Notes: generated by a model from the sequence alone, not told the origin. A stretch of DNA of 64,000 bases from Gemmatimonadota bacterium (GCA_029863525.1 JAOTVL010000004.1:291-64290); one strand, 5' to 3'. Counted from the first letter of the stretch, positions 2,932 to 59,006 are shown. Numbers and translations are program-made.

Positions 2932-6552
<3,621 letters not shown>

Positions 6553-6567
6553 CTCAGCGTATTCGGA

Positions 6568-7605
6568 TCATGCAGCACCGACGTGAGTCGGCATTGCACG
6601 AAAGGATGAAAGCTCGAGGGCGTCCACTGGAAGGAACACTTCCTCCCAATGCCGGACGACCGCAACCTCTGCGAAATCCAGGTCGGTCGGCCAGGCCGTC
6701 CAGCCCGACACTGCCAGCAAGGCCATGTGAGGCATGTCGACCCCGGCCCGAACCGTCAGGGGCATGGTCCCGGGAAAACGGGGGTTCACCTCGAGCAGGC
6801 CGAGTCGGCCGCGCTCATCGCGTCGGAACTGGATGTTGGCGACGAAGCGGAGACCAATGCGTTGGGCGACCGCTCGTGCCATCGCTTCGAGCTCGGGGTC
6901 GTGGACGGTTCGAGCGGCGACGGCAACACCCGAATCGACCTTGAGACGAACGCGCGGGACAGTGGCTCGGACCTGCCCGTCCTGATCGGCGAAGACGTCG
7001 ACGCTGTATTCCTCGCCCGGCAGGTACTCCTGCACCAAGTGGGAGCCGTCACGATGGATCTCCGCGAGATCGCGCTCCGATCGAACGAGGCGCACCCCCC
7101 GTCCCCCACTGCCCGAGCGCGGCTTGACGATGAAGGGAAACGTCCAGTCATCGCTATCGAAAGCTGGGTCGAGCGCCGCGGAGCGCGGGGCGGGGATGAT
7201 GTCCTCGCACGCCCGGGCCAGTGCCAACTTGTCGAGGCAAAGCCGAAGGGTGTCGAGGTCGGCCAATACCAGTCGGGTCCCGTGACGCTGCATGTGCTCC
7301 GCGATTTCCGCCAACGGGATCAGCTCCGAGTCGACCGTCGGGATGAGAACCTCGATCCGCATCGAACGGCACAGCTCGGCCATGTGTTTCGCGAAGTCCG
7401 GATCGTCACCCCGGGGAAGGAGCACACGCTGCTCATGACCGACGAGGTAGAGGCCGGCGGCGTGGGGGTCGACATCGCCCGCGAATAGGAGATGACCCTC
7501 GTGGGTGAGGCTCCGGAGCACGGAGATCGCGGCCGCGCCACCCGCTCCCGTGACCAGGACCCGAAGGCGATCGTCCGGCGGCGAGACGTCTGTCGTATGA
7601 GTCAT
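6568..7605 (-). CDS. ATP-grasp family ligase (substrate unknown)
   Basis: 345 aa. N-terminal Rossmann-like VLVTGAGGAAAISVLRSL. ATP-grasp core FIVKPRSGSGGRGV...VQEYLPGEEYSVDV...LLEVNPRF. Confidence 0.8.
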   Translation of the reverse strand: MTHTTDVSPPDDRLRVLVTGAGGAAAISVLRSLTHEGHLLFAGDVDPHAAGLYLVGHEQRVLLPRGDDPDFAKHMAELCRSMRIEVLIPTVDSELIPLAEIAEHMQRHGTRLVLADLDTLRLCLDKLALARACEDIIPAPRSAALDPAFDSDDWTFPFIVKPRSGSGGRGVRLVRSERDLAEIHRDGSHLVQEYLPGEEYSVDVFADQDGQVRATVPRVRLKVDSGVAVAARTVHDPELEAMARAVAQRIGLRFVANIQFRRDERGRLGLLEVNPRFPGTMPLTVRAGVDMPHMALLAVSGWTAWPTDLDFAEVAVVRHWEEVFLPVDALELSSFRAMPTHVGAA

Positions 7606-7614
7606 GATGGCTCC

Positions 7615-8658
7615 TCAGGCGCTGCGGCGGATGACCTCGAGGGGCTCCACCACGCGATAATCGGAGAAGCGCCCCCAGTACGAAGCCGTCGAGCGTAGGT
7701 GGCTCGGCTCCAGGTAGGGACGGATGCTCGCCTGCGACGCGAAGAGCCCGATGATGTCCAGCTTGCGGTCCATCTGTTCCTCGACATCCACGAAGAGCGA
7801 CGGGCGGAAGTCGACCGTCGTGGACGGCGACTGATAGCAGTAGACGTTGGGTACGCCCCGCGCGGCGACCATCGTGGCCGCGTGCACCGCCCGGTGGTCC
7901 TGGTGCGCGTCGTGGGCCGTGTGCGTGTAGATGATCGACGGGTGGAAGTCTCTCAGCACCGACTCGATGGCCGAGATGGTCTCCGGTCCTGGGCTGATCG
8001 AGCGATCCGGCAGGTCGAACATGCGCAGCTCCGCGCCAAGCGCTCTCGCGGCCTCTCGCGATTCCTTGTGACGAATGTCGGGAGCGCCACCGGCCTCTCC
8101 CCCGGTCAGGGTCACGACGATGACGTCGTCTCCGTGCCGGGAATGGTTGAGCAGGATCCCGCCGCAGCCGATCTCGACGTCGTCGGGGTGGGCGCCGATG
8201 GCGACGACGACCTCCTTCGGACGGGCGTTCGCCTTCTGTCGGCTCTTCTCGAGCAGTTCGTCCAGCTTCTGCTGGAGCGTCGCTCTGCGCATGGGCTTGA
8301 CCAAGAAGTCGTCGGCCTGCCCTCGGATTGCCCTGAGCGCGTAGTCGAACTTCTTGTGCGCGGTCACCATCAGGACGGGCGCCTGCGGTTGAAGCTTCTT
8401 GCACAGCTCGAGGATCTCCAACCCGCTCATGCCGGGAAGATCGATGTCGCTGACGACGATGTCCCAGTGGACACCCGACCTGAGGAATGCTTCCGCGGAA
8501 TACCCGGACGCGGCGTGCGTGACCTCGTAGCGATCGGTGATCTCCATCCACCGGCTCATGGCGCGCGCCTGCGATTCGTCGTCTTCGATGAGAAGGACGC
8601 GGGCCGGGTCGGGGACCGCCTTGGCCGCTCTTGTCTCGGCTTGAATCGTACTGAGCAT
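7615..8658 (-). CDS. response-regulator receiver domain fused to a PIG-L/LmbE-family N-acetylglucosaminyl deacetylase
   Basis: REC: VLLIEDDESQ...VVSDIDLPGMSG...LVKP. LmbE: VVAIGAHPDDVEIGCGG...HQDHRAVH. The ATG at 8658 has a GAGGA about 10 nt upstream. The track start at 8727 would overlap the sigma-54 promoter. Confidence 0.88.
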   Translation of the reverse strand: MLSTIQAETRAAKAVPDPARVLLIEDDESQARAMSRWMEITDRYEVTHAASGYSAEAFLRSGVHWDIVVSDIDLPGMSGLEILELCKKLQPQAPVLMVTAHKKFDYALRAIRGQADDFLVKPMRRATLQQKLDELLEKSRQKANARPKEVVVAIGAHPDDVEIGCGGILLNHSRHGDDVIVVTLTGGEAGGAPDIRHKESREAARALGAELRMFDLPDRSISPGPETISAIESVLRDFHPSIIYTHTAHDAHQDHRAVHAATMVAARGVPNVYCYQSPSTTVDFRPSLFVDVEEQMDRKLDIIGLFASQASIRPYLEPSHLRSTASYWGRFSDYRVVEPLEVIRRSA

Positions 8659-8710
8659 GGGTAGTCGTCCTCGTGGTGTTGCTGTGGGGGGTTGTTTGGT
8701 CAGACCCAAA

Positions 8711-8726
8711 AGCAACTGCCGTGCCA
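8711..8726 (-). promoter_or_regulatory. sigma-54 (-24/-12) promoter reading into the REC::PIG-L / ATP-grasp / hybrid-kinase operon
   Basis: Minus strand reads TTGGCACGGCAGTTGCT, which matches TGGCACG-N4-TTGCW with correct GG/GC spacing. It lies about 55 nt upstream of the ATG at 8658. Confidence 0.7.
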
Positions 8727-8738
8727 ATCATTTAAAGT

Positions 8739-8834
8739 AATGCCACACAACGTGTTACATATTTTGTGATGGGAGCCGGAACCCTGGGCTGTCCCGACAT
8801 GATACGTTATATGTTCAATAATGCTACACAGCAT
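8739..8834. promoter_or_regulatory. candidate enhancer/UAS elements between the divergent promoters
   Basis: Direct repeat AATGCCACACA (8739-8749) and AATGCTACACA (8820-8830), 81 bp apart. The second copy lies within the palindrome ATGCT-ACAC-AGCAT (8821-8834). The surrounding DNA is markedly AT-rich. Confidence 0.3.
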
Positions 8835-8949
8835 CAGTAATATGGCCTAGGATAATACAGTTTTGGGCCTGACCGGACAGGGCGCACCACGACAATTTGC
8901 ACGCTTAAGTCTTGTTTTTACAGCGTTTTACCGTCATTATCGCACGGCG

Positions 8950-8964
8950 TGGCATCATGCTTGC
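8950..8964 (+). promoter_or_regulatory. sigma-54 (-24/-12) promoter reading into the PHP / TPR-barrel / NtrC / EAL operon
   Basis: TGGCAT-CATGC-TTGC has correct spacing and one mismatch to TGGCAC-N5-TTGC. It lies about 55 nt upstream of the ATG at 9018. Confidence 0.6.
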
Positions 8965-9017
8965 CAATACAGGGCGATGTTCGAAAACAGTACTGACCCT
9001 TGTTCGTGGACGCGCCC

Positions 9018-9764
9018 ATGCCGACCAGGAAGCACACTTCGCCCCTCGCCGCCGATCACCACGTGCACTCCACCTTTTCGGATGGACGGGGAACCCCGGA
9101 GGACAATCTCTCGGCCGCCCGCGGCGCCGGCCTGGCGCGATTGGGCTTCGTGGATCACGTCCGCGCCGACAGCGGATGGTTGCCCGCCTATACGGCCCAC
9201 ATCCGAGCCCTGGCGGCGACCAGCGAAATCGAAATCACGTGTGGGGTCGAGGCCAAGATCCTCGACCTGGACGGTACGCTCGATCTTCCCGCCGATCTTC
9301 GCGGAATCGATCGGGTCGTGGTCGCCGACCACCAAATGCCTGGCGCGAAGGGACCGATTCGGCCGATCGACGCTCGGATCGCGCTCGAGGCAGGAGCGTT
9401 GACTCGCGGTCGGGTGGTGGATGACCTCGTCACGGCGACCGAGGCAGCGCTGAATCGGCACGAGGGAGTTCTTCTCGCGCATCTGTTCAGCGTCCTGCCC
9501 AAGATGGGCCTCTCGGAGGACGACGTCACAGACGACCACCTGTTCCGGCTCGTCGAGGCCGCATCGCGGTCCGGGGCCGCCGTGGAGGTGAGCGAACGCT
9601 GGCGCTGCCCGACGCTTCGGGTCACCCGCGCTTTCTTCGCCGCCGGTGTCGCGGTCGTCCCGAGCTCCGACGCGCACGAGCCGCGCGCAATCGGCGAGTA
9701 TGACTACGTATCCGACGTCTTCGCCGCGATCCACGGGGACCTCGAGCATGCGGAGGTCGCGTGA
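9018..9764 (+). CDS. PHP-domain metal-dependent phosphoesterase (HisJ/CpsB-like)
   Basis: DHHVHSTFSDG...FVDHVR...ADH motifs. The ATG at 9018 is preferred over the TTG at 9000. The stop overlaps the next gene's GTG (GTGA). Confidence 0.8.
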   Translation: MPTRKHTSPLAADHHVHSTFSDGRGTPEDNLSAARGAGLARLGFVDHVRADSGWLPAYTAHIRALAATSEIEITCGVEAKILDLDGTLDLPADLRGIDRVVVADHQMPGAKGPIRPIDARIALEAGALTRGRVVDDLVTATEAALNRHEGVLLAHLFSVLPKMGLSEDDVTDDHLFRLVEAASRSGAAVEVSERWRCPTLRVTRAFFAAGVAVVPSSDAHEPRAIGEYDYVSDVFAAIHGDLEHAEVA

Positions 9765-11119
9765 GCTCGCTCACGAGGGTCTGCTTCTCGACCGTGATCC
9801 TGATCGGGGCGAACCTGAGCGTCGTCGGTCCGACCGTTGCGGCCCAGGACGCGGACATGGGTGGCTTCGCGGACGTCCATGAAGAGGCTCTACGCTTCGT
9901 GGCAGCCGGCACTCCGGAGCGGGCCCTCGCTCTGCTCAGGTCGGTCGACACGGCCCGCCCGATCCGCGATCCCCAGCTCATCCTGCTCTTCGGGACCCTG
10001 GTGCGCGCTGCCGGCGAACTGGACTCGGCGATCGAGATGTTCGAGCGCGGCCTGGACGCCTCGAGCCCTGAGCAAATCGCCACGGCGTGGACGGAGCTCG
10101 CGGTCACGCGGTCCTGGACCGGGGACTTGCCTGGCGCGGAGGCCGCCTTTCGGTCGGCCCTGGACTCGTCGCCGGAATCGCGGCCCGCGCGGACAGGGCT
10201 CGCCCGGATCCTCCGCTGGCGAGGGGAGACAGCCGAAGCCGAGTCGCTCTACCGCGGCCTGCTCGCGGACGGCGGAGATCCCGTGGAGGCCATGGTAGGC
10301 ATGGGCTTTCTCGCCATCGGCGCCCTCCAGGGACGAGAGGCGATCGCCTGGTTCGACCAGGCACTGGCCCTCGCGCCGGACAACGCTGAGGCGCGCGACG
10401 GCCTCGGTCGGATCCACGATGCACGCAGGCTGGCGCTTCAATGGAGAGTCACCCGTGCCGAGACGGCCACAGGCGTGGGGCGGGCCGAGTGGGTCGTTTC
10501 CGCCGCCTACCGGGTGACTCCCCAGGGCACGGCGTCCGGCACGTTGAACCTCGCCCCCCGTGCCCAGGACGTGGTCGTCAGTGACCCCAACACCGTGACG
10601 TCGACCGTCTTCCATTGGACGGCTTCCATGGGCTGGGCTCAGCAGCTCTCGACCTCATGGAACGCAGCCGCGAGCGTCGAACGCGTCTCGTCCACGTCAG
10701 GGGCAGGCTACCTCGGCACCCTGGAATCGGGGCGCCGACTCAGTAGCGCCTGGAATGCGAGCGCCGGCGCACGGGGCGGTCACCTCCCCGGGGTCGGCTC
10801 CGAGCTAATGGGCTGGGCCGGCGTCACCCGGGTCGGCTCCGCCCGGAGATCAGCCGGCATCACGGCGTTTTACGGATCGGACCTGCGCGGCACCTGGTCG
10901 CGCTCCGCTCTCGTGACGGGGTCCACCGGAATCGGAGACCGGCTCACGGTCCGTGTGGGGGTGGCGAAGGGGTGGACGTCCTCCGTGGGATTCCATGAGG
11001 CGACCATCGCGGGTCGCTGGGGCCTGCACGGCGGACACGAGCTCGTGGCCGAGCTCTTCAGATTCGATGGAGCGTACAGGCGCTCCGGCCTTCGCGTCGG
11101 CGCCAAGATCGGACTTTGA
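9761..11119 (+). CDS. secreted TPR-repeat protein with putative C-terminal outer-membrane beta-barrel (PgaA/YaiO-like architecture)
   Basis: Signal peptide MSSLTRVCFSTVILIGANLSVVGPTVAAQ. TPR-like helical repeats fill the N-terminal half. The C-terminal half is rich in alternating beta-strand-like segments. The barrel assignment is inference. Confidence 0.55.
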   Translation: MSSLTRVCFSTVILIGANLSVVGPTVAAQDADMGGFADVHEEALRFVAAGTPERALALLRSVDTARPIRDPQLILLFGTLVRAAGELDSAIEMFERGLDASSPEQIATAWTELAVTRSWTGDLPGAEAAFRSALDSSPESRPARTGLARILRWRGETAEAESLYRGLLADGGDPVEAMVGMGFLAIGALQGREAIAWFDQALALAPDNAEARDGLGRIHDARRLALQWRVTRAETATGVGRAEWVVSAAYRVTPQGTASGTLNLAPRAQDVVVSDPNTVTSTVFHWTASMGWAQQLSTSWNAAASVERVSSTSGAGYLGTLESGRRLSSAWNASAGARGGHLPGVGSELMGWAGVTRVGSARRSAGITAFYGSDLRGTWSRSALVTGSTGIGDRLTVRVGVAKGWTSSVGFHEATIAGRWGLHGGHELVAELFRFDGAYRRSGLRVGAKIGL

Positions 11120-11142
11120 CCCAACACCAAGGGAGACAGCTC

Positions 11143-12606
11143 GTGGAAGACGTGTACGGAACCGTCGTCGTCGTCGAGGACGATCCGGCTCAGCGGACGA
11201 TCCTCGATCGATGGCTGACCGCGGAGGGTCACGAGGTCGCTCTCTTCCCCGACGGCGAGTCGTGCCTGAAGGGGCTCTCGGGCACCCTGCCCGACGTCGT
11301 TTGTCTCGACCTGCGGCTGCCGGGAATCGACGGATTGGAGACGCTGGACAGGATCCGGGCCCACCACCCGAAGCTTCCGGTCATCATGCTCACCGCCGAG
11401 GAGTCGCTGGAGCCGGTTGTCGCGTCGATACGCCTCGGTGCCTTCGAGTACCTGCAGAAACCGGTGGAGCGCCAGAAGCTCCTGACGACGGTGAGAAACG
11501 CGATCGTGCTGGCTCAGATGGAGGTTCGGCTGACGCAGCTCCAGCACGAGGTGGAGGGGTGGAACTATCCCGACATCGTGGGCCGGAGCGAACGAATGAA
11601 GCGCCTCTTCCGGCAAATGGACCGAGTCGCCCCCACGGACGTTTCGGTCCTCATCCAGGGTGAGAGCGGCACGGGAAAGGAGCTCGTGGGTCGGGCACTG
11701 CACGACGCGAGCGCCCGTGCCACCGGACCGTACGTCGCACTCAACTGCGCCGCGATCCCGGAGTCGCTTCAGGAGTCCGAGCTGTTCGGACACGAGAAGG
11801 GCGCCTTCACCGGCGCGACCCAGCGCCGGGAGGGGCGGTTCGAGCAGGCGAACGGGGGCACGCTTTTCCTGGACGAGATCGCGGAGCTGGCCCCGGGCAT
11901 GCAGGCCAAGCTGCTACGAGCCATCCAGGAGCAGCGCTTCTTCCGCGTCGGCGGGTCCAAAGAGGTCGCATCGGATTTCCGCCTCCTGACGGCGACCCAC
12001 CGGAATCTGGCTCAAGAGGTCCGGGCGGGGCGGTTCCGCGAGGACCTCTTCTTCCGACTCGCGGTCCTCGAAATCGAGGTGCCCGCCCTACGCGAACGCG
12101 GAGACGACGTGGCTCTGCTGGCGTCACACTTCGCGCACGCCATGGGCGTCAAGACGAACGGAACGCCTTCTCGGGTCACCGGTCAGGCGCTCGACGCGAT
12201 CAAGGCCTACGGCTGGCCGGGCAACGTCCGGGAGCTTCAGAACGCGATCCAGCGGGCAGTAGTCCTCGCGGAAGACGACCAGATCGGACTGGACGCGCTT
12301 CCGCCGAAGGTGAGGGCAGCCGGACGCGGAGACATCGCGCCCGACGCCGATGCGGCTGCCGACCGAAGCGAAGTTCGGGGCGGCCCCGGCGAAGTGGTTG
12401 GGGGAGCGACCATCACGCCCCCCGCTCGGCACTGGCCCGATTTGATCCCCGACCAGTCGCTCGACGCGATCGAGGGGAAGGTCATCGCGAGCATGATCCA
12501 ACGTCACGCGGGAAACCTGTCCGAGGTGGCGAGAGTCCTCGAAATCTCTCGCTCGACCCTGTACCGCAAGATGGCCGCACACGGTATCTCGAGGAGAGAG
12601 AGCTGA
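11143..12606 (+). CDS. sigma-54-dependent response regulator (NtrC family: REC, AAA+, Fis-type HTH)
   Basis: REC VVVVEDDPAQ...VCLDLRLPGIDG. Walker A GESGTGKE, GAFTGA motif (EKGAFTGA), LFLDEI. C-terminal HTH LSEVARVLEISRSTLYRKM. The GTG at 11143 is preceded by AGGGAG; the track start is the TTG at 11116. Confidence 0.93.
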   Translation: MEDVYGTVVVVEDDPAQRTILDRWLTAEGHEVALFPDGESCLKGLSGTLPDVVCLDLRLPGIDGLETLDRIRAHHPKLPVIMLTAEESLEPVVASIRLGAFEYLQKPVERQKLLTTVRNAIVLAQMEVRLTQLQHEVEGWNYPDIVGRSERMKRLFRQMDRVAPTDVSVLIQGESGTGKELVGRALHDASARATGPYVALNCAAIPESLQESELFGHEKGAFTGATQRREGRFEQANGGTLFLDEIAELAPGMQAKLLRAIQEQRFFRVGGSKEVASDFRLLTATHRNLAQEVRAGRFREDLFFRLAVLEIEVPALRERGDDVALLASHFAHAMGVKTNGTPSRVTGQALDAIKAYGWPGNVRELQNAIQRAVVLAEDDQIGLDALPPKVRAAGRGDIAPDADAAADRSEVRGGPGEVVGGATITPPARHWPDLIPDQSLDAIEGKVIASMIQRHAGNLSEVARVLEISRSTLYRKMAAHGISRRES

Positions 12607-12608
12607 TC

Positions 12609-14306
12609 ATGCGTACCGCGGAATGGCTCTCCGATGCCTCGACCGCCCAGGGGGTGGACGAGGGCGCGCGCGTGGTTCTTCGAAATGCCGTCGAGCCCTT
12701 GGCATTACTCGATGCTGACGGCCGTGTACGCGACCACAACCAGGCCATGGCAGCGCTCCTCGCCCCAGATGGCCCATCGATCGTCGGGCGCCGCGCGTGG
12801 GACTTCGCTCACTCGCGCCACCGAGCGGGGCTCCGCTCATGCTTCGCGGCGTGCCTGTCCGGTCCGGGCCCTGCACCCGAGACGCGGCTCCGCTTGAGCC
12901 ACCGTGACTCCACCGAGCATGTCCTGCAGATCCGATTGACGAACTGTATCGGAACACCCGGGCTCGATGGCGTCCTTCTCAGCCTGCGGGACGTGGGTCG
13001 GCTGACCCAAGCGGAGCAACGGCTGCTCCACAGCGCGGTCCACGATCGAACGACTGGGCTTCCTGGACGCCCGATCCTCATGGACCGAATCGCCAAGGCC
13101 TCCGTCCACGGACTGCCAGTGAGCGTCTTGATCCTCGAGGTCGAGGGCTTCGCTTCGGTTCGGGGTGGGTGGGGTCTGTCGAGTGGGGACGATTTCCTGG
13201 TCGCTCTGTCCGACCGAATCCGGTCGCTGCTCGAACCCACGGACCTGATCGCGCGTCTGGAGGGTGATCAGCTCGGCCTCCTCCTCTTCGGCCGGAGCGA
13301 GGAAGCCGCGGTGGACGTGGCACGGTCGATTCAGCTTTCCCTTCGGCAGCCGGTGTCGGCGAACGGTCGAAGCGCGCGGTGTTCGGTTCGGGTCGGGATC
13401 TCCCCGCCCGGTGATCCGGGATCGGAAGCGGGCGAGCGAATCCGCCATGCATCGCTGGCGTGTCGGCGACCGGTTCACGAAGGCTCCACGACCGTGGCCG
13501 TGTACGGCCCGGAGATGGACGATTCCGTCAACGAGCGGATGGACGTGGAAACCGGCCTCCGCAGAGCCCTGACCAGCGGCGGAGAGCTGGAAGCCCACTA
13601 TCAACCCCTGGTCGAGCTGCACTCCCGCCGAATCGTGGCCTTCGAGGCGCTGATACGGTGGCGACACCCACAGCGCGGCCTGCTCGGCGCCGGCGCTTTC
13701 GTGCCTTTCGCCGAGGAGAGCGAGTTGATCGTCGAGCTCGGCTGGTGGATGCTGGATGACATCTGCGCGGAATTGGGGCGGCGGGCGATCGCGGCAGAAG
13801 CGGTCGTGCCGGTCCACGTGAATGTGGCTCCGGCCCAGGTCGCGAGCGGCGAGCTCGTCCGACGGGTCACAGAAGCCCTCGAGCGGCACCGCTGCCCCGT
13901 GGAACTTCTCCATCTGGAGCTTACGGAGTCAGCGACGGGGCTCTCACCAGAAGCCGTCGCCAGGACGCTCGAGGAGCTTCGGTCACTGGGCGTCCGCTTG
14001 GCGATCGACGACTTCGGCACCGGGCACTCCTCCCTCAGCTACCTCCATCGGCTGCCCGCGGACGTGCTGAAGATCGATCGATCGTTCGTGAGCGGGATCG
14101 CCCCCGATGCGCGTCAGGAGCCCCTGGTCCGTAGCATCATCGCCGTAGCTCAGCAGCTTCATCTGAAGGTCGTCGCCGAGGGAATCGAGACCGAGGCGGA
14201 GGCCCAGGCGCTGCAGGGACTCGGCTGCGACTTCGGTCAGGGGTACCTGTTCTCGAAGCCCGTCCCGCTCGCCACTGCGTATTCGTTGCTGGACGGTGCG
14301 ACGTGA
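12609..14306 (+). CDS. PAS / degenerate GGDEF / EAL protein (probable c-di-GMP phosphodiesterase)
   Basis: The GGDEF position reads LEGDQLG (degenerate). EAL motifs are intact: FEALIRW, DDFGTGHSSLSYL, KIDRSF, VVAEGIETE, GQGYLF. Confidence 0.9.
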   Translation: MRTAEWLSDASTAQGVDEGARVVLRNAVEPLALLDADGRVRDHNQAMAALLAPDGPSIVGRRAWDFAHSRHRAGLRSCFAACLSGPGPAPETRLRLSHRDSTEHVLQIRLTNCIGTPGLDGVLLSLRDVGRLTQAEQRLLHSAVHDRTTGLPGRPILMDRIAKASVHGLPVSVLILEVEGFASVRGGWGLSSGDDFLVALSDRIRSLLEPTDLIARLEGDQLGLLLFGRSEEAAVDVARSIQLSLRQPVSANGRSARCSVRVGISPPGDPGSEAGERIRHASLACRRPVHEGSTTVAVYGPEMDDSVNERMDVETGLRRALTSGGELEAHYQPLVELHSRRIVAFEALIRWRHPQRGLLGAGAFVPFAEESELIVELGWWMLDDICAELGRRAIAAEAVVPVHVNVAPAQVASGELVRRVTEALERHRCPVELLHLELTESATGLSPEAVARTLEELRSLGVRLAIDDFGTGHSSLSYLHRLPADVLKIDRSFVSGIAPDARQEPLVRSIIAVAQQLHLKVVAEGIETEAEAQALQGLGCDFGQGYLFSKPVPLATAYSLLDGAT

Positions 14307-14347
14307 TCCGGCGGAAGCTCGAGCGTGCTCCCGGAAAGCATGCCGAC

Positions 14348-14695
14348 TCAGGAAGGAGGCAGATCGAGAATGAACGAGAGGCCGACGCCGTCCTGCCTCG
14401 GATAGTACTTGAACTCGACGCTGTCTTCCCGATGCTGCCACGAGTCGAGCTCGGTGTCGAAGGTACGAAGCCCGTGGAAGTCACGGATCTCCAACCAGAA
14501 GGTCTCTTTTCCATCGGGGTAGCGGACGCACGAGAGCGCGAATCGCTCCTCGGCCCCTCGTTCGAGCGAATGCCGGACCGTCGTGTAGACTTCCCGGTCA
14601 TCTCGGCGGATCGTCTCTTCCTCGACCTGGACGGTGAATCCACGGGAGGAGAAGAAGTCCACGGTGCCGCGAAGGTATTCGAACGACATCTGCAT
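14348..14695 (-). CDS. hypothetical soluble protein (115 aa), third gene of a small-ORF trio
   Basis: The composition looks like a real protein (aromatic-rich, not Arg/Pro-biased) and third codon positions are strongly G/C. It starts 6 nt after the stop of the upstream small ORF. Confidence 0.65.
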   Translation of the reverse strand: MQMSFEYLRGTVDFFSSRGFTVQVEEETIRRDDREVYTTVRHSLERGAEERFALSCVRYPDGKETFWLEIRDFHGLRTFDTELDSWQHREDSVEFKYYPRQDGVGLSFILDLPPS

Positions 14696-14701
14696 GGGCG
14701 A

Positions 14702-14899
14702 TCAGCCCACGAAGTTCCAGAGAAGCATCTGGCGAACGAGAAGCGCGCCAGCCAACAGCTCCAGAACGAGAATCACCCGATAGAACAGGAGCCGCTCTCG
14801 CTCGATATCGAGCGAGACGTCGAGGCGGAACTCGACATCGTCCGCCGGGAGCTCTTGCGTCGTCGCCTCGATCGGATCGGGTCGACGCTCGGAGGTCAC
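14702..14899 (-). CDS. hypothetical small membrane protein (65 aa, one TM helix)
   Basis: Its GTG start overlaps the upstream stop as GTGA (translational coupling) and is preceded by GGTGGAG. TM segment LLFYRVILVLELLAGALLV. Confidence 0.5.
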   Translation of the reverse strand: MTSERRPDPIEATTQELPADDVEFRLDVSLDIERERLLFYRVILVLELLAGALLVRQMLLWNFVG

Positions 14900-15069
14900 G
14901 ACTCCACCGCCGGTGGGGATCCCGGCACATCCGACGCGCCCCGGCTCAAAACCAGCCCGGTCAACGCGAGGACCTCGATGACCAATACCGCGACCACCAG
15001 GCGCCGGTGCCAGGACACCTGGCGGCGGAGGGTTCGGAGTCGCTCCTTCTTCGCTTCGATACGGTTCAT
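14896..15069 (-). CDS. hypothetical small membrane protein (57 aa, one TM helix)
   Basis: MNRIEAKKERLRTLRRQVSWHRRLVVAVLVIEVLALTGLVL... By my count about 5/6 of third codon positions are G/C. The opposite-strand frame here is Arg-rich junk. Confidence 0.5.
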   Translation of the reverse strand: MNRIEAKKERLRTLRRQVSWHRRLVVAVLVIEVLALTGLVLSRGASDVPGSPPAVES

Positions 15070-15079
15070 CCGACGGCCA

Positions 15080-17044
15080 ATGTGCCCGCTGGCGAAGCGG
15101 TTCGCCAGCGTTGTGAAGGCCGTCGCCCTCGCGCTCCTGGGTGTCGTCACCGGTCTTTCGGCGCAAGAAGTCGACGAGGTCGTGATCTCCTCGGCCCAGG
15201 TCCTCAGTGGTCGGGCCGCCCGGACAGAGATCATCATCCCGGTCTTCGGGCCCCTCGAGTCTCCCGAAGTGTCCCTCGACCTCGATTACTCGGAGATGCT
15301 CGACACCGATCGCAGCCTTCTCACGATTCAGGTCAACGATCGTCCGCTGCGAAGCATCAGGCTCTCTGAAATTGGGCGGACGCTCGCCTTCCGGTTGCCG
15401 CCTGAGGCAGGATTCCAACGCGTGTCCATCGAGGCGCGCCTCACCGTACAGGGCGATCCGTGTCTCCTCGACTACCGCGACAGCGCCTGGCTCACCCTGC
15501 TGCCCTCGAGCCGCGTCCGGTACCGGCAGGGGTCCACCGACGGGGATGATGCCACCTCCGTCGCCGTGGCCGAGATCGTGGAGCGCTGGACCGCGTCCGG
15601 TGCCACCGCGATCCAGATGGACGTGCCCGAAACGACCGACCCCGACCTGCTCCTCGCCCTCGTCGACATCGACCACCTCGTACGAGGCTGGGGACTCGAG
15701 CCCCGTTACGACGGTCCGATGGGCCGGGGTGAGCCGCGGCTCCAAGTCACGATCGGGGTCGCGGAGGCCGAATCGCCGTGGCAGAGCGCAGCAGGCCCGG
15801 ACGAGATCGCTGGAATCGCGCGCGCGGAGGGCACGTTCCTCGAGCTCCATGCGCATCGACCCGATGGGATCAGCAGAATGGCGCAGCTACTGGGGGATCC
15901 CGAAGCCTACCGCCTCTGCCCGGGCTCCACCTGCATGGTGGGCGCGAGCTTCCGGGCATCGGGCACGGAGGCGCCCAGCCCTCGCGACCGAGGAGCCGCC
16001 TACGACCTGGTCGATGCCGGATTCCCGGAGGGCTGGGTGGCAGCGGGCGCCGGACGTCATCAACTCCAGATGGTATGGCCACGGCCGCCCTGGTGGCGCC
16101 TCCACCGCTGGCCGGAGCTCAGGCTCCGGGCTCGCGTCGCCTCACCCGACGACGACGACTCACGCCTCACCGTTCACCTCAATGGTCAACCACTCGCCTC
16201 CTACGCCCTCTCGGAACGGGAGAATGACGTGGTCGCGCTCTCGGTGCGGATTCCTCCACAGTTCTGGACCGCGGACGAGTGGATCATCCAGGTAGCCGCC
16301 CGGCTCGAGGAGAGCCGAGAGAGCTGCGTAGCCGCCGACCCCGACGCCCTGTGGATGGTGCTGGAGCCCGAGTCGGGGCTGTACGTGCCGAGGACGGAGG
16401 AGCGATTCGACGGCATCGCCGAATACCACGAATTCGGGCGGGTTCCGACCCTGACGGGCGATCCGACCATCTTCTCCGACCACTTTGCCAACGTTGCCGC
16501 CGTCCTGTATCCGTACCGCGCGCGCATGGACGCTTCCAGGGGCTTCCTCTGGGATCCGGAGTGTGACGACGACTGCCTGGAGCTGGTCCCGGTGGGCAGT
16601 GGACGCGCCACCGGCAGCATCGTGGAAGCGGGCGAGATGTGGGTGCTGGATCGGTCGGGTGCCCTGAGGATTCCGCTGTTGCCGGAGCCCGGTCACTATC
16701 AGCTCGCGCGCACGGAAGTGGGTCTGCTTCTGGCCGCTCCCAGGGCGCAAGCAGAGGTGACCGTGCCCGACTTCTCCGCGCTTCTGGGACCATGGGCCCT
16801 CTTCGTGAACGGATCCTGGGTCGCCAGGGAGGCCGACGCGCCGACGGGGTTGGTCGAAGTCGGTCCGACCGGAGAGGAGACACTCCTCCTGAGCGAGGAG
16901 CAACAGCGGGCCCGCTTCGTCAACTTCCTCTGGCTCTGCGTCGTCATCGCGAGCGCGGCGGGAGGATCGTTCTGGATCTGGCGTACCTCCCGAGACCGCG
17001 CGAGCGAACCGTCGGACCACGTCGAGTTCTCGCGTGACCACTGA
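15080..17044 (+). CDS. BcsB-like periplasmic synthase subunit (signal peptide, two repeat modules, C-terminal TM anchor)
   Basis: Signal peptide MCPLAKRFASVVKAVALALLGVVTGLSAQ. Two ...L-x-[IV]-x-[LV]N-[DG]-x-P-L-x-S-x-x-LSE modules (LLTIQVNDRPLRSIRLSE and LTVHLNGQPLASYALSE). C-terminal helix FVNFLWLCVVIASAAGGSFWIW. The gene call is solid; the BcsB-like assignment is tentative. Confidence 0.5.
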   Translation: MCPLAKRFASVVKAVALALLGVVTGLSAQEVDEVVISSAQVLSGRAARTEIIIPVFGPLESPEVSLDLDYSEMLDTDRSLLTIQVNDRPLRSIRLSEIGRTLAFRLPPEAGFQRVSIEARLTVQGDPCLLDYRDSAWLTLLPSSRVRYRQGSTDGDDATSVAVAEIVERWTASGATAIQMDVPETTDPDLLLALVDIDHLVRGWGLEPRYDGPMGRGEPRLQVTIGVAEAESPWQSAAGPDEIAGIARAEGTFLELHAHRPDGISRMAQLLGDPEAYRLCPGSTCMVGASFRASGTEAPSPRDRGAAYDLVDAGFPEGWVAAGAGRHQLQMVWPRPPWWRLHRWPELRLRARVASPDDDDSRLTVHLNGQPLASYALSERENDVVALSVRIPPQFWTADEWIIQVAARLEESRESCVAADPDALWMVLEPESGLYVPRTEERFDGIAEYHEFGRVPTLTGDPTIFSDHFANVAAVLYPYRARMDASRGFLWDPECDDDCLELVPVGSGRATGSIVEAGEMWVLDRSGALRIPLLPEPGHYQLARTEVGLLLAAPRAQAEVTVPDFSALLGPWALFVNGSWVAREADAPTGLVEVGPTGEETLLLSEEQQRARFVNFLWLCVVIASAAGGSFWIWRTSRDRASEPSDHVEFSRDH

Positions 17045-18512
17045 TGCGGCCCTCATGCTGGTCGCGGCGCTCGCCACGATGCTCGTCGTGGTCGCGGCGC
17101 TTCCGGTCCTGACCGGACTCTTCCAATTCATCCTCGTCGGCGGCTCGGTCTTCCACACGCACCTGGACAAAGCGGGGCCGACGACGCCGCGGGTCAGCGT
17201 CCTGATTCCGGCATGGAACGAGGCCGCGGTCATCGGAACGACGATCGATCGACTCATGCGGCTCCGGTACCCACTCGACCGCCTCCGCATCTACGTCGTG
17301 GACGACGCTTCGTCGGACGAGACTCCGAGCGTGGTCATCGGCAAGATGAAGGAGTACCCCGGCAACGTCTTCCACATTCGTCGGGTCGACGGAGGTGAGG
17401 GGAAGGCTCACACGCTCAACTACGGCCTCGACGTGCTCTGGCGAAGCGACTGGACCGAGGCCGTGCTCGTAATGGACGCCGACGTCTTCTATACGCCGGA
17501 ATCCCTGCTCAAGATGGCGCGGCACCTCCACGATCCGGAGATCGGCGCGGTGACGGCGTATATCAAGGAAGGGAGCCGGTCACCCAACTACGTCCAGCGC
17601 TTCGTGACCTTCGAATACATCACCGCCACGGGCGCGTCACGACGAGCGCAAAACCTGCTGCAGTTTTTGGCGTGCCTTTCGGGGGGAGCCCAATTGCACT
17701 CACGCGAGAACCTCGTGGCGATCGGTGGGCAGATCTTCTCGAACACGTTGGCCGAAGACACCTTCACCACGTTTCGAACGCAGCTCCGAGGGCGGAGGGC
17801 GATCTTCGAGCCGAACGCGGTCGTTTACGCCGAAGAGCCCGACACGCTGGATGGTCTATGGAAGCAGCGGATCCGCTGGGGTCGAGGCAACGTTCAGATC
17901 ACGTCCGTCTTTCGAGACCTGTGGTTCAATCGAAAGGCCCACGCGTCCATGGGGTCGCTGGCCATGGCGCTCCTTTGGTTTTCGATCTTCCTCATGCCGA
18001 TGTTCCAGATCGGCGCGTCCATCGGCCTGTTCGCGCTCTATTTTCTGGACGAGGGTGCTGCGTGGAATCTGTTCAACCTCTTCTGGATCATTTCGGGAGT
18101 GGTCTACCTGGTGGTCACTTTGATTTCGCTCTCAGTGGATCCGGAGTCGGCGCGGAAGTCGTGGCTCGAAGGCATACTCTTCCCCGGCCTCGTCTCCCTG
18201 CTGATCATCGCGCACAGCCTCTTCCCTCCCGCTTTCGCTCCCGCCGCCGAGTGGCTCGCTCTGGACCGGGACGGATGGGTCGCGACGGTCCTGACGCTCT
18301 GCCTCTACGCCTGGATCAGCGCAAGCATGGCCGTGTCGTACGCGGCCAAGTGGTGGGAAACGCGCGGACACCCTCGGCTCGCAAGGGCATTTCTCTACGT
18401 CGGCGGCTACGGTGCGTTCCTGTGCGCGGTCACCGTCGGCGCCTACGTCATGGAGATCGGCGGCGCCGAGATGACGTGGGAAAAGACGGAGAAGACCGGA
18501 AAAATCGGTTGA
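17034..18512 (+). CDS. processive family-2 glycosyltransferase (cellulose / PNAG / chitin-synthase-like), no PilZ domain
   Basis: VLIPAWNE, VVDDASSDET, MDADV and the Q-x-x-RW motif (QRIRWGRGN). Multiple TM helices flank the catalytic domain. The GTG start overlaps the previous gene by 11 nt. Confidence 0.88.
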   Translation: MTTDAALMLVAALATMLVVVAALPVLTGLFQFILVGGSVFHTHLDKAGPTTPRVSVLIPAWNEAAVIGTTIDRLMRLRYPLDRLRIYVVDDASSDETPSVVIGKMKEYPGNVFHIRRVDGGEGKAHTLNYGLDVLWRSDWTEAVLVMDADVFYTPESLLKMARHLHDPEIGAVTAYIKEGSRSPNYVQRFVTFEYITATGASRRAQNLLQFLACLSGGAQLHSRENLVAIGGQIFSNTLAEDTFTTFRTQLRGRRAIFEPNAVVYAEEPDTLDGLWKQRIRWGRGNVQITSVFRDLWFNRKAHASMGSLAMALLWFSIFLMPMFQIGASIGLFALYFLDEGAAWNLFNLFWIISGVVYLVVTLISLSVDPESARKSWLEGILFPGLVSLLIIAHSLFPPAFAPAAEWLALDRDGWVATVLTLCLYAWISASMAVSYAAKWWETRGHPRLARAFLYVGGYGAFLCAVTVGAYVMEIGGAEMTWEKTEKTGKIG

Positions 18513-18619: not shown

Positions 18620-21481
18620 ATGTCCGCCGTACGACCCCGGAACCTCTGCCTGTCCGTTTCACTGGTCCTCTCCGCCGCCGCCCTGACCGTTCCGACGCCT
18701 GCCGCGTCGCAACAGACCGAAGAAGCGGTGGTCAACCAGTCCGAAAACCCCCTCCTCCGCCCGTTCCGTTGGCGGTCGATCGGACCCGTCGGCCAAGGAG
18801 GACGGGTCGATGACATCGCCGTTCATCCGACGGACACGCGCATCTTCTACGTCGGCTTCGCGACCGGCGGGCTTTGGAAGACCACGAACAACGGCACGAC
18901 GTTCGAGCCCATCTTCGACGAGTACGAGACGCACTCGATCGGCGCGCTCGCGATCGCGCCGTCCAGCCCGAACATCGTCTACGTCGGCACGGGAGAGGCC
19001 AACAACCGGCAGAGCTCATCGTACGGGGTGGGCATGTACAAGACGACGGACGGCGGCGAGACGTTCCAGCACATCGGCCTGCGCGAGACCCAGTCGATCG
19101 CGCGCATCGTCGTGCATCCGACGGACCCGAATACCGTCTGGGTCGCGGCGGTCGGTCACCTGTTCGGTCCCAACGAAGAGCGTGGTGTCTTCAAGTCCAC
19201 GAACGGCGGGCAGACCTGGGAGCACGTGCTCCGGTTCAACGAGGACACCGGTGCAACCGACCTGATTATCGATCCGTCGAACCCGCAGCGCATGTTCGCC
19301 GCCACCTACCAGCGTCGGCGCTCGGCGTGCTGTTTCGTCGGCGGAGGCCGCGGCAGCGCCATCTGGGCCTCGGACAACGGCGGCGAGAGCTGGTCACGCA
19401 TCGAGGCGAACGGGCTTCCCAACGGAACGATGGGGCGCATCGCTTTGGCGACGACCCCGGCCGACCCCGACGTCATCTACGCCCAGATCGAGGTCGCCGC
19501 GGACCGTGAGCGCCCCCTCACGGACGAGGACCGCGAAGCATGGGAAGCGCTGGCAGAAAACGACGAGCTCCCGCCCGACCCACAGTGGAGCGGAGTATGG
19601 CGCTCGACGGACGGCGGTCAGAGCTGGCAGTTCCGCAGTAACGAGAACGGCCGACCCATGTATTTCAGCCAGATTCGTGTCTCACCGACGGACGTCGACC
19701 TCGTTTACACGGTGGACCAGAGGGTCCAGAAGTCGCGCGACGGTGGGCAGACGTGGGAGACGCTGGACGGGTACGGTCACGTCGACCAACACGCGGTGTG
19801 GATCAATCCGAACGATCACGATCACATCCTGATCGGAAACGACGGTGGGGTCGACGTCACGTACGACCAGGGCGAAACGTGGGAGTCGCTGCGCACGTGG
19901 GCCGTAGGGCAGCCCTATCACGCATCGGTGGACATGCAGCGGCCCTACTACGTCTGCACCGGCCTCCAGGACAACGGAAGCTGGTGCGGACCCAGCTCGA
20001 ACCGCGGCAGCCCCATCCTCGCGACCGACTGGTTCCAGGCCGGAGGCGGGGACGGCTTCTATACGCAGGTCGACCCGACGAACCCCGACATCATCTACTC
20101 CGAGTCACAGAACGGGAACGTCCGCCGCATGAACCTGGCGACGGGCGAGCAGGGGAGCATCCGGCCGCGTGGACCCCGTGGTGCCGGAGGTGGCGGCGGT
20201 GGCGGCGGCGGCGGCGGCGGCGAGCCGAACATCCTGCCGACGCCGCCGGAAGGGACACAGATCCGGTGGAACTGGAACACGCCCATGCTCCTGTCGCCGC
20301 ACAATCCGAGCACGATCTACGTTGCAGGCAACCGCTTCTTCATCTCGCGCAACCGCGGAGACACGTGGACCATGACCGCGGACCTGACCAAGAACGTGGA
20401 CCGGGACCAGATCGTCCTCACGGGCGTTCCGAACGCAATCCCCAGATGCCAGCAGCTCGATCGCGGGGAGAACTGCCTGCCCTCACGCAACGACGGCGTG
20501 TCGAATTGGAGCACCGCGGTGACGATCGCGGAATCGCCGGTGGTGCCCGGTGTCCTGTGGGTCGGCACCGACGACGGCAATATTCAGGTGAGCCGCGACG
20601 GGGGCGCGACGTGGTCGGAGGTGAGCCGCAACCTGCCCGGGGGAACGACGCAGTACTACGTGTCGCGCGTCGAGGCGTCCTGGTTCGACGCGGGCACCGC
20701 CTACGCGTCGCTCGATGGAACGCTATCGGACGACATGGCCCCCTATGTCTACGTGACCCGGGACTATGGGGCGAGCTGGGAGAACATCACCTCGAACCTC
20801 CCCGGGTTCGGCAACGTGAACACCGTGCGCCAGGATCCGCGCAACCCGGACGTCCTCTACGTCGGCACGGAGCTCGGCTTCTTCGTGTCGCGTGACGAGG
20901 GTGGCGAGTGGCACAGGTTCATGAACGGCCTCCCGGTCGTACGCATCGACGACGTGCTCGTGCACCCGCGCGACAACGACCTCGTGCTCGCGACACACGG
21001 CCGGTCGGTGTACGTCATGGACGACATCACGGCGCTGCAGCGGACGACCGCCGAGGTGCTCGCGAGCGACATCCATCTGTTCGAGCCCCGCGAGGCGGTC
21101 CAGTGGAAGATCGACCGTCGGCGAATCCGCTCGGTCACCGGTGACAAGAACTGGACGGGAGACAGCGCTCCGCCGGGAACGGCGATCAGCTACTGGCTGG
21201 CCGACGCGGAACAGGACGTGTCGATCGTCATATCGGACGCCGTCACCGGCGAGCCCTTCCGTACGCTCGAGGGCACGGGAGCGCCTGGCATGAATCGCGT
21301 CCAGTGGAACCTCCGGGGAGAGCGCCAGGAGCAAGGCGGAGGAGGTGGCGGTGGCGGCTTCGGGGGCGGCGGACAGGGCCCGCTGGCCGAACCCGGGGTC
21401 TATCGCGTCACGCTGAGGGCGGGTGGCGAGCAGCGTACGACCACCGTACGGGTGCTGGAGGACACTTGGCTGGGCCGATGA
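18620..21481 (+). CDS. secreted sortilin/VPS10-type BNR-repeat beta-propeller protein
   Basis: 953 aa with a signal peptide. Repeated S-x-D-x-G-x-T-W (BNR/Asp-box) motifs: TTDGGETF, STNGGQTW, SDNGGESW, STDGGQSW, SRDGGQTW, SRDGGATW. Confidence 0.88.
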   Translation: MSAVRPRNLCLSVSLVLSAAALTVPTPAASQQTEEAVVNQSENPLLRPFRWRSIGPVGQGGRVDDIAVHPTDTRIFYVGFATGGLWKTTNNGTTFEPIFDEYETHSIGALAIAPSSPNIVYVGTGEANNRQSSSYGVGMYKTTDGGETFQHIGLRETQSIARIVVHPTDPNTVWVAAVGHLFGPNEERGVFKSTNGGQTWEHVLRFNEDTGATDLIIDPSNPQRMFAATYQRRRSACCFVGGGRGSAIWASDNGGESWSRIEANGLPNGTMGRIALATTPADPDVIYAQIEVAADRERPLTDEDREAWEALAENDELPPDPQWSGVWRSTDGGQSWQFRSNENGRPMYFSQIRVSPTDVDLVYTVDQRVQKSRDGGQTWETLDGYGHVDQHAVWINPNDHDHILIGNDGGVDVTYDQGETWESLRTWAVGQPYHASVDMQRPYYVCTGLQDNGSWCGPSSNRGSPILATDWFQAGGGDGFYTQVDPTNPDIIYSESQNGNVRRMNLATGEQGSIRPRGPRGAGGGGGGGGGGGGEPNILPTPPEGTQIRWNWNTPMLLSPHNPSTIYVAGNRFFISRNRGDTWTMTADLTKNVDRDQIVLTGVPNAIPRCQQLDRGENCLPSRNDGVSNWSTAVTIAESPVVPGVLWVGTDDGNIQVSRDGGATWSEVSRNLPGGTTQYYVSRVEASWFDAGTAYASLDGTLSDDMAPYVYVTRDYGASWENITSNLPGFGNVNTVRQDPRNPDVLYVGTELGFFVSRDEGGEWHRFMNGLPVVRIDDVLVHPRDNDLVLATHGRSVYVMDDITALQRTTAEVLASDIHLFEPREAVQWKIDRRRIRSVTGDKNWTGDSAPPGTAISYWLADAEQDVSIVISDAVTGEPFRTLEGTGAPGMNRVQWNLRGERQEQGGGGGGGGFGGGGQGPLAEPGVYRVTLRAGGEQRTTTVRVLEDTWLGR
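20186..20221 (+). repeat. in-frame Gly-codon microsatellite ending in (GGC)7
   Basis: GGA GGT GGC GGC GGT followed by seven GGC codons, giving about a dozen consecutive Gly. A second Gly-rich run lies at 21335-21373. Confidence 0.9.
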
Positions 21482-31705: not shown

Positions 31706-32155
31706 TCACCGGGTATGCTCTTGGGCCAGCGATGCGAGGTAAGCCGCCAGTGCCTCGGCATCGGGACCGATCCGATCGAGAACCTCGTCGAGCTGCCCGA
31801 TCTCGACGCCATTGGCGGCCAGAAGAGAATCGGCCACGCTCCGGTCCTCCGTGATGCGCGAGGCGAGCTCGCCCACGTCGCGCACGGTCATCCCGGCGAG
31901 CGCCGCGCCAACCACCTCGGCCTGCGACCCGAGCGCACCGAGAATCGAATCGAGCTGTCCGATGTCGACGCCGTTGGCGGCCAGGATCGAGTCTGCCACC
32001 CCGGGATCTTCCGCGACGCGCGAGGCGAGGTCGCCCAACTCACTGACCGTCAGCGATGCCAACTCTGCGCCGATCGCACGAACCGCCGACTCTACCTGCT
32101 CGGTGTCGCATCCGGCGGTGCCCAACACGAGTGCTACGAAAACCCAGCGTCTCAT
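31706..32155 (-). CDS. lipoprotein with internal tandem repeat, function unknown
   Basis: Lipobox LGTAGC. Two ~50-aa repeats (...LASRVAEDPGVADSILAANGVDIGQLD... and ...LASRITEDRSVADSLLAANGVEIGQLD...). Confidence 0.7.
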   Translation of the reverse strand: MRRWVFVALVLGTAGCDTEQVESAVRAIGAELASLTVSELGDLASRVAEDPGVADSILAANGVDIGQLDSILGALGSQAEVVGAALAGMTVRDVGELASRITEDRSVADSLLAANGVEIGQLDEVLDRIGPDAEALAAYLASLAQEHTR

Positions 32156-32369
32156 CCGATACGTCCTCAGTCTTTGCGGTCTGTCGTCCCGACCTCACCA
32201 GCGCGTCGCCAAGAGAAGGGACCGGTTTCCCGCCTACTTGTCACATGGGAGCGAGGGAGTGGAACGTTGCCTGCTCCCCCAACGTAGGGAAAGTGAGCAC
32301 CGCCTCCCCGGAGCCAAACGACACGCATCGGCGGCCGCGACACGCGGCGGCACTGGAAATGGGGAACCG

Positions 32370-34685: not shown

Positions 34686-34772
34686 GAGGCGAAGCCCGCC
34701 GTCGGGTTGCGCGGCCCCGGGCGTCAGCCCCAAGGTGCGGCAGTATCAGGGCATGCACAGTCGCCGGATCGG

Positions 34773-47975: not shown

Positions 47976-48223
47976 CGTCCTTGCTGCATCGCCAAACGGA
48001 TGCCTCTGCGTGCGCAAGGGGCCGGAGGCACTTCCTGCAGACAGCGCCCGCCTGCTCTTGCCGTAGGGCTAACCGTGGCCCTGCAATGAGATGACCGACG
48101 CTCTCGCGCGACACAAGGTGTCCCGCTACGCGACACCTCTCGTTGGTGCAGGCGACGGCCGGAAACGGTCCGTGCGTACCCCGGCCCCGGCGCACGAGTC
48201 GTCCGGAGGGAACCTGGGGGCGG

Positions 48224-55936: not shown

Positions 55937-55948
55937 TCTTGTGATTAG

Positions 55949-56023
55949 TGGAGCCAGGTGGATTTGAACCACCGTCCTCCCGTTAGGACTAACCAGGCGC
56001 TCTTCCGTCTGAGCTATGGCCCC
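55949..56023 (-). tRNA. tRNA-like gene with non-canonical anticodon arm (isotype undetermined)
   Basis: GGGGCCA TA GCTC-AGACGGAA-GAGC ... GGTGG-TTCAAAT-CCACC TGGCTCC A. The acceptor, D and T arms are canonical. The 25 nt between the D and T arms (GCCTGGTTAGTCCTAACGGGAGGAC) is 2 nt too long. It folds only with a 9-nt loop, or with a 7-nt loop that lacks U33. Confidence 0.55.

Positions 56024-58933: not shown

Positions 58934-59006
<73 letters not shown>

Follow-up and report, generated by a model that had tools for sequence, protein, structure and literature searches.

Candidate bidirectional, enhancer-dependent sigma-54 control of two divergent operons in a Gemmatimonadota bacterium

Does the short intergenic region between two divergent operons of a Gemmatimonadota bacterium drive both of them through sigma-54, and is the activator encoded in one of these operons the protein that controls them? 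We addressed these questions in a stretch of 64,000 nt (GCA_029863525.1 JAOTVL010000004.1:291-64290), hereafter the window, with all positions counted from its first nucleotide. The original prediction had placed back-to-back sigma-54 promoters at the two ends of the gap at 8659-9017 and had proposed a feedback circuit around them. Our analysis of the sequence and its relatives leads us to regard this gap as a likely bidirectional, enhancer-dependent sigma-54 control region, with dyads as putative binding sites of an NtrC-type activator and probable input from a hybrid kinase.

Two divergent operons and an AT-rich gap

On the minus strand, Pfam assigned a REC::PIG-L deacetylase (7615-8658), an ATP-grasp ligase of the PF15632 type (Ter-type; 6568-7605), and a cytoplasmic hybrid kinase with the domain series GAF-PAS-HisKA-HATPase-REC-REC-HPt (2932-6552), which confirms that the minus-strand operon encodes a hybrid kinase with an HPt domain. 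A long ORF at 7433-8731, considered for the REC::PIG-L protein, proved to be the wrong frame. The kinase gene is co-conserved with the REC::PIG-L operon in relatives, and the order REC::PIG-L, ATP-grasp, hybrid kinase is common to four related loci (L128-L131). Within the REC::PIG-L receiver, the acceptor Asp and the Lys-Pro pair are kept across 47 homologues. On the plus strand lie genes for a PHP hydrolase (9018-9764), a TPR protein (9761-11119), a REC-AAA+(Sigma54_activat)-HTH_8 activator (11116/11143-12606), a PAS-GGDEF-EAL protein (12609-14306), a BcsB-like protein (14303-17044), and a PgaC-like GT2 synthase (17034-18512), followed after a gap of 108 nt by a BNR/sortilin glycosidase-like gene (18620-21481). 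The minus-strand genes are separated by 9 and 15 nt, and plus-strand stops and starts overlap or abut throughout from PHP to GT2. Each gene set, with gaps of at most 15 nt or overlaps, therefore resembles one operon (2932-8658 on the minus strand and 9018-18512 on the plus strand), the BNR gene excepted. The two sets are flanked by genes for an acyltransferase_3 and a polysaccharide deacetylase, and the neighbourhood as a whole looks like a synthase-type exopolysaccharide locus.

Downstream of the locus, the window also encodes a 957-aa TPR protein (31812-34685), two large Ser/Thr protein kinase-TPR proteins (34707-37322, plus strand; 39291-41852, minus strand), and genes for tRNA-Asp (55948-56023) and tRNA-Lys (58934-59006). 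A small ORF of 44-66 codons is called between the GT2 and TPR genes in four relatives (L129 3285-3464, L130 3301-3480, L138 3441-3641, and L140 4510-4644), whose gene order around GT2/TPR differs from that of the window.

The gap is AT-rich, as originally described, with a GC content of 46-49% compared with ~66% for the window; specifically, GC is 0.46-0.47 at 8700-8999 and ~0.66-0.70 in the flanks. Two -24/-12 motifs face outward from it. The first, P_rec (TGGCACGGCAGTTGCT), lies on the minus strand at 8726..8711, with GG at 8725-8724, GC at 8713-8712, and a predicted start (+1) near 8700. The second, P_php (TGGCATCATGCTTGCC), occupies 8950-8965 on the plus strand, with GG at 8951-8952, GC at 8963-8964, and a predicted start near 8976. 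On the plus strand, 8950-8964 reads TGGCATCATGCTTGC, precisely where the original prediction had put it. The minus-strand 17-mer, which reads AGCAACTGCCGTGCCAA on the plus strand (reverse complement TTGGCACGGCAGTTGCT), spans 8711-8727 and not 8711-8726, a correction of one base. The predicted exact -24/-12 spacing was borne out: both motifs have the canonical 12-nt GG-to-GC register, with GG and GC exactly 10 nt apart in TGGCAC-N5-TTGCW. The end of each 16-nt motif is 52 nt from the ATG, in agreement with the earlier figure of ~55 nt. We set +1 at 12 nt past the -12 C, which gives a predicted leader of 42 nt for P_rec and for P_php. REC::PIG-L begins with an ATG at 8658 (CAT at 8656-8658 on the plus strand), with a GAGGA ribosome-binding site upstream, and the PHP ATG is at 9018.

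By direct reading, P_rec matches 12 of the 12 specified positions of TGGCACG-N4-TTGCW and P_php 9 of 12; the latter has a T at -21 and a C instead of A/T at -11. T at -21 is a common sigma-54 promoter variant, found, for example, in Pseudomonas Pu. The scan with a sigma-54 position weight matrix, which had been suggested as a check, placed P_rec first (17.8 bits) and P_php second (13.1 bits) among 128,000 positions on both strands, with a matrix that approximates published Barrios-type frequencies. The next-best matches, at 32260 in a TPR gene and at 37908 in a Big_7 gene, are both intragenic, and we ruled them out as further sigma-54 promoters on account of that position. Across 2.1 million positions from 77 unrelated control loci, the per-position frequency was 9e-6 for scores of at least 13 and 1.9e-6 for scores of at least 15.5. 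At these rates, a pair of sites in the right orientation, each no more than 100 nt from one of two divergent start codons, has an expectation of ~1e-7.

An Rfam scan of the gap returned no family match at E <= 1, and a known RNA element was discarded on this basis. We also noticed a 19-nt inverted repeat (8693-8711 / 8861-8879; 84% complementary, arms 149 nt apart), one arm of which covers the P_rec start, with the other immediately past the candidate dyad UAS3 described below; neither predicted transcript spans both arms. The related locus L082 has an inverted-repeat pair at the two equivalent places (4947-4960 and 4778-4791) with a different sequence.

Conservation of the motif pair in related loci

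Relatives of the REC::PIG-L gene were gathered from a protein database, a species-level genome collection, metagenome contigs, and exact-protein look-ups. Scanning the genome collection with the family alignment gave mostly Actinomycetota loci, which we used as negative controls, with L073, L064, and L059 as the only informative loci; the metagenome scan yielded two close loci, L081 and L082, and the other loci came from the exact-protein look-ups. The back-to-back motif pair is present in seven distinct syntenic loci, six on Gemmatimonadota-like contigs (58-80% REC::PIG-L identity) and one in a Blastocatellia genome. These are L127 (80% REC::PIG-L identity; P_rec TGGCACGGGCGTTGCT, P_php TGGCATCTCTCTTGCG), L081/L082 (77%; TGGCATGCCAGTTGCT, TGGCATCCCCCTTGCT), L128 (68%; TGGCACGGCCGTTGCT, TGGCATTGCTCTTGCC), L137 (67%; TGGCACATGCGTTGCT, TGGCACCCGTCTTGCC), L129 (59%; TGGCATATCAATTGCT, TGGCACGGGCTCTGCA), L130/L131 (58%; TGGCACTGGAGTTGCT, AGGCACGGCTGTTGCG), and the Blastocatellia locus L073 (49%; TGGCATCGTGCTTGCC, TGGCACTGTGCTTGCA). 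The original prediction had tied its fate beforehand to the GG and GC dinucleotides in orthologous loci, and we found both invariant in these seven further loci, with varying spacers. The two motifs are the top two matrix matches of their locus in L127, L081/L082, L128, L137, and L129; in L130/L131 and L073 they take ranks one and three. Orthologous P_rec sites score 12.8-17.5 bits and orthologous P_php sites 11.2-17.1 bits. A seven-sequence alignment (A2) has 40 invariant columns, 16 of which fall within the two motifs and six in start codons, and in every one of the seven Gemmatimonadota regions 214-223 bp separate the two -24 elements.

All loci with the divergent REC::PIG-L / PHP order carry both motifs in equivalent places and orientations, except L059. 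This more distant Gemmatimonadaceae locus keeps the divergent order and has only degenerate sigma-54 matches (AGGCATGGTTCTAGCA, TGGCCCTATACTTGCG). The non-syntenic relatives (L132-L136 and L138-L140), in which REC::PIG-L sits in a colinear operon or another context, have no site upstream of REC::PIG-L, nor were such motifs found in the ~60 Actinomycetota loci with the order REC::PIG-L, ATP-grasp, PHP, GT2. The latter absence is the expected outcome of a negative control, because Actinobacteria lack sigma-54 (PMC3162934). A separate observation concerns L064 (Polyangiaceae), in which TGGCACTGCCTTCGCA lies 43 nt upstream of the REC::PIG-L gene.

Could both motifs simply be chance matches in an AT-rich gap, devoid of promoter function? 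Short degenerate motifs do arise randomly: TGGCACN5TTGC with at most one mismatch has three matches in the 64-kb window, two of them P_rec and P_php, and ~2.6 are expected by chance. We nevertheless hold this explanation to be extremely improbable, given that the two motifs rank first and second in the window in the correct orientation and placement, persist down to 49% protein identity and across two phyla amid diverging surroundings, and are missing where synteny or sigma-54 is missing.

Another reading would keep P_rec alone as a sigma-54 promoter, with P_php weak, silent, or a palindromic regulator site, and with the PHP operon read by sigma-70. It draws on the lower score of P_php, in the window and in several relatives (11.2-14.3 bits; 11.2 in L130 and 11.4 in L137), on its near-symmetry in the window, where the minus-strand reading scores 10.6 bits, and on a sigma-70-like match at 8794-8822 that points rightward. 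That match, the only one that a sigma-70 search of the gap region returned, is weak (9/12), with 0.4 expected by chance. Furthermore, the partial palindrome (TGGCA-N7-TGCCA) is lost in L127, L082, and L129, whereas the TGGCA and TGC register is kept in eight of eight loci; as the dyad symmetry is not conserved, we rejected the idea that P_php is instead a palindromic transcription-factor site. The position of P_php is constrained as well, at 42-79 nt from the start codon across loci and with UAS3 centred at -121 to -125 from its predicted start. Finally, in L129 (17.1 bits) and L073 (16.9 bits), the site on the PHP side equals or outscores its partner. On balance, a promoter function restricted to P_rec seems very unlikely to us, and we continue with P_rec and P_php as a pair of candidate sigma-54 promoters.

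A candidate shared enhancer and the activator encoded beside it

Between the two motifs we recognized three candidate dyads. Relative to the P_rec and P_php starts, respectively, the centre of UAS1 (TGTCCCGACATGATACG; TGT-N11-ACG; 8790-8806) lies at -98 and -178, that of UAS2 (TGTTCAATAATGCTACA; exact TGT-N11-ACA; 8812-8828) at -120 and -156, and that of the weaker UAS3 (TGGCCTAGGATAATACA; 8843-8859) at -151 and -125. They are spaced by ~21 bp and then ~31 bp, corresponding to two and three helical turns. Measured from the predicted P_rec start, UAS1 stays at -98 to -102 across seven loci, and UAS2 lies at -118 to -122; UAS3 keeps its distance from the predicted P_php start in six of seven loci (-113 in L130), and its window copy is the weakest (8.7-11.5 bits). 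The exact TGT-N11-ACA pattern occurs ten times in eight intergenic regions, against 0.64 expected (~15-fold enriched); in the same regions, TGT-ACA pairs at N7-N10, N12, N14, and N15 showed no excess, and N13 a weaker one (six occurrences). With a matrix built from the relatives only, UAS2 and then UAS1 are the best matches of the entire 64 kb, and leave-one-out matrices retrieved the triad at equivalent positions in each Gemmatimonadota locus, with only UAS2 above the threshold in L128. The leave-one-out scores are not fully independent because the sites were partly picked by pattern and by eye, whereas the enrichment of the exact pattern is independent. The dyads are absent from L073, although its promoters are shared with the window. 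Overall, the layout is that expected of a shared enhancer, the dyads between the two outward candidate sigma-54 promoters being at enhancer distance from both (P_rec, -98 to -151; P_php, -125 to -178).

A conserved AT-rich block with CARNNNNTTR, which we take to be the IHF consensus core, adjoins each promoter at a constant offset in most loci. On the P_rec side it is represented by CAACGTGTTA at 8748-8757, ~22 nt upstream of the -24 element, the core of which recurs at an equal offset in L082, L128, L137, and L129 and forms a conserved block in alignment A2. On the P_php side, CAGCGTTTTA at 8921-8930 lies ~20-30 nt upstream of the -24 element and is also found in L082, L128, and L137. We infer that both may be IHF sites.

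A fourth UAS-like dyad (TGTTCGAAAACAGTACT) at 8978-8994, +3 to +19 of P_php, scores 14.1 bits with the relatives-only matrix and is the best match of the window besides UAS1 and UAS2. Only L127 and L082, the closest two relatives, have counterparts of it (at +10/+12). Speculatively, it might be an operator for negative autoregulation. Elsewhere in the window, the same matrix gives 14.0 bits to a perfect-palindrome UAS-like site (TGTCCCGCTACGCGACA, 48119-48135); a weak sigma-54-like match (GGGCACATGAATTGC) lies at 48528-48542.

The plus-strand operon was said to encode the only sigma-54 activator of the window, and indeed no other protein in the 64 kb bears a GAFTGA motif. The activator has the domains expected of an enhancer-binding protein (EBP), namely PF00072, PF00158 (233.7 bits), and PF02954, as well as the motifs GHEKGAFTGA (GAFTGA at 11800), a Walker A GESGTGKE, and an acceptor Asp in VCLDLRLPG. 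It scores below the NCBIfam cut-offs for NtrC (452 vs 559 bits), AtoC (408 vs 714), PrsR (PEP-CTERM; 399 vs 503), and ZraR (392.6 vs 760), all the named equivalogs, and thus belongs to the NtrC-type class without a name of its own. The L129 and L130 orthologues share 64-65% identity with it and have a near-invariant HTH recognition region that fits a conserved dyad as its putative target, and the activator gene is kept within the PHP-side operon in L129-L131. As the only EBP in the window, with a kept operon position and with dyads at enhancer distances, it makes autoregulation through a shared enhancer the natural reading. Comparison of the loci thus lends support to the proposal that the cis-encoded activator would act on its own operon, and we infer that this protein, rather than another EBP of the genome, would bind the dyads.

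Alternatively, P_rec and P_php might be real promoters driven by a different EBP encoded elsewhere, the cis-encoded activator being a target and not an autoregulator. In L073, in which the dyads are missing, the related EBP gene lies outside the PHP-side operon, together with an ATP-grasp gene; in L059, no EBP was found within 7 kb. Several EBPs are also listed for Gemmatimonas aurantiaca (Francke et al. 2011, additional file 1). Against such a remote regulator stand the location of the EBP gene within the PHP-side operon, which the window shares with L129-L131, and the near-invariance of the HTH, matched by that of the dyads. Moreover, even in L073 the EBP is encoded at the locus and is preceded by a sigma-54-like site of its own. 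We consider control by an EBP from elsewhere unlikely and retain the cis-encoded activator as the putative regulator. The L073 site (TGGCCCGGCGTTTGCC; 12145-12160, minus strand), the third of its kind in that locus, lies ~70 nt upstream of the ATP-grasp gene, which precedes the EBP gene; the L073 activator, too, seems to be placed downstream of a sigma-54 promoter.

Both promoters presuppose sigma-54. A search for the RpoN box within the 64-kb window found none. Sigma-54 is listed for Gemmatimonas aurantiaca T-27, the type species of the phylum (Francke et al. 2011, additional file 1), and this supplementary table was all that we found in the literature on rpoN in Gemmatimonadota. We assume that rpoN is encoded by the host MAG, in line with this listing and with the intact GAFTGA activator at the locus.

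A proposed circuit and its relation to known systems

Taken together, these features suggest a circuit in which ~276 bp separate the predicted starts of the two outward-directed -24/-12 promoters, and the three helically phased dyads would bind dimers of the NtrC-type response regulator from the rightward operon. The IHF-core-like element beside each promoter may bend the DNA such that the activator oligomer reaches either closed complex. The cytoplasmic kinase would sense a signal through its GAF/PAS domains, and its HPt would pass phosphate to the receiver of the activator and, probably, to that of REC::PIG-L; phosphorylation of the activator by this kinase is suggested by their domains and co-occurrence at the locus. 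Once phosphorylated, the activator would oligomerise on the triad, contact the sigma-54 holoenzyme, and open both promoters using ATP. The expected output is an increase in the kinase, the activator itself, and the c-di-GMP enzyme, along with a synthase-type polysaccharide machine (GT2, BcsB-like, and TPR proteins) and its modifying enzymes (PIG-L, ATP-grasp, and PHP). Kinase and activator would both be products of the circuit, which is therefore proposed to be self-reinforcing, with net feedback that is presumably positive. If they were made only from activator-dependent promoters, a basal source would be needed. The use of sigma-54 is likewise a prediction, as is the product of the pathway.

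The enzymes concerned extend well beyond this locus. A colinear cassette of REC::PIG-L, ATP-grasp, PHP, and PgaC-like GT2 genes occurs in ~60 Actinomycetota genomes (e.g., L005 7001-11266), including Microbacterium, Cellulomonas, Leifsonia, Solirubrobacterales, and Conexibacter, and cassette genes are also found in Legionella, Lysobacterales, Burkholderiales, Myxococcota, and Acidobacteriota. Gemmatimonadota have the cassette divided between two divergent operons. Our literature search found no paper describing the four-gene cassette. A more far-reaching and, in our judgement, doubtful interpretation is that the bidirectional enhancer might be the master switch of this widespread four-enzyme cassette, split in Gemmatimonadota and Acidobacteriota, with self-repression through the dyad at 8978-8994. 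If true, 1) the split cassette would have been placed under a phosphorelay-driven sigma-54 activator in these two phyla, and 2) the activator would repress its own operon through that dyad, combining positive and negative feedback. Irrespective of this interpretation, the locus draws attention to a conserved set of enzymes that phyla with sigma-54 regulate differently from phyla lacking it. We found no published promoter-level study in Gemmatimonadota, and the value of the locus lies in a mapped, testable model for this phylum, comprising two predicted starts, a candidate motif (TGT-N11-ACA), and a fixed enhancer geometry.

How does the locus compare with known systems? In the zraP-zraSR (hydHG) locus of E. 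coli and Salmonella, divergent sigma-54 promoters lie in one intergenic region and are both controlled by ZraR, a REC-AAA+-HTH protein encoded with its kinase in one of the two operons, such that the two-component system autoregulates (PMC4987338). The window resembles it in that divergent candidate sigma-54 promoters share a region and the activator is encoded in one of the operons. Unlike zraP-zraSR, however, the two operons carry one of the two signalling genes each, the kinase on one side and the activator on the other. In place of a periplasmic zinc sensor there is a cytoplasmic hybrid kinase with GAF, PAS, and HPt domains, the predicted outputs are a c-di-GMP enzyme and polysaccharide-type enzymes, and the dyad is TGT-N11-ACA.

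A second likeness is to the syp polysaccharide locus of Vibrio fischeri, in which SypG is the sigma-54 activator and SypE is an enzyme-linked response regulator. The proposed relay from the HPt to both the EBP and REC::PIG-L would resemble that system, with its hybrid kinase SypF, SypG, and SypE. The proteins are not orthologous, though, and syp has several same-direction sigma-54 promoters and no bidirectional enhancer; moreover, SypE acts on the SypA partner switch and, unlike REC::PIG-L, is not a deacetylase.

As for the enhancer itself, the upstream activating sequence of NifA is TGT-N10-ACA, and NtrC sites at glnAp2 lie near -108 and -140. GlrR at glmY uses TGTC-N10-GACA sites (PMC4987338). 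The candidate triad is like the NtrC, GlrR, and NifA enhancers in its tandem dyads 100-150 bp upstream of -24/-12 elements, on one helical face and often with an IHF bend between. The spacing from TGT to ACA is 11 nt in the window compared with 10 for NifA and 12 for GlrR, and, unlike these enhancers, a single triad serves two promoters in the proposed layout. That sigma-54 controls cell-surface polysaccharides is a familiar theme (Francke et al. 2011). With this theme and zraP-zraSR already known, the locus therefore adds no new principle; it is a clean instance of a known regulatory design and not a new kind of system.
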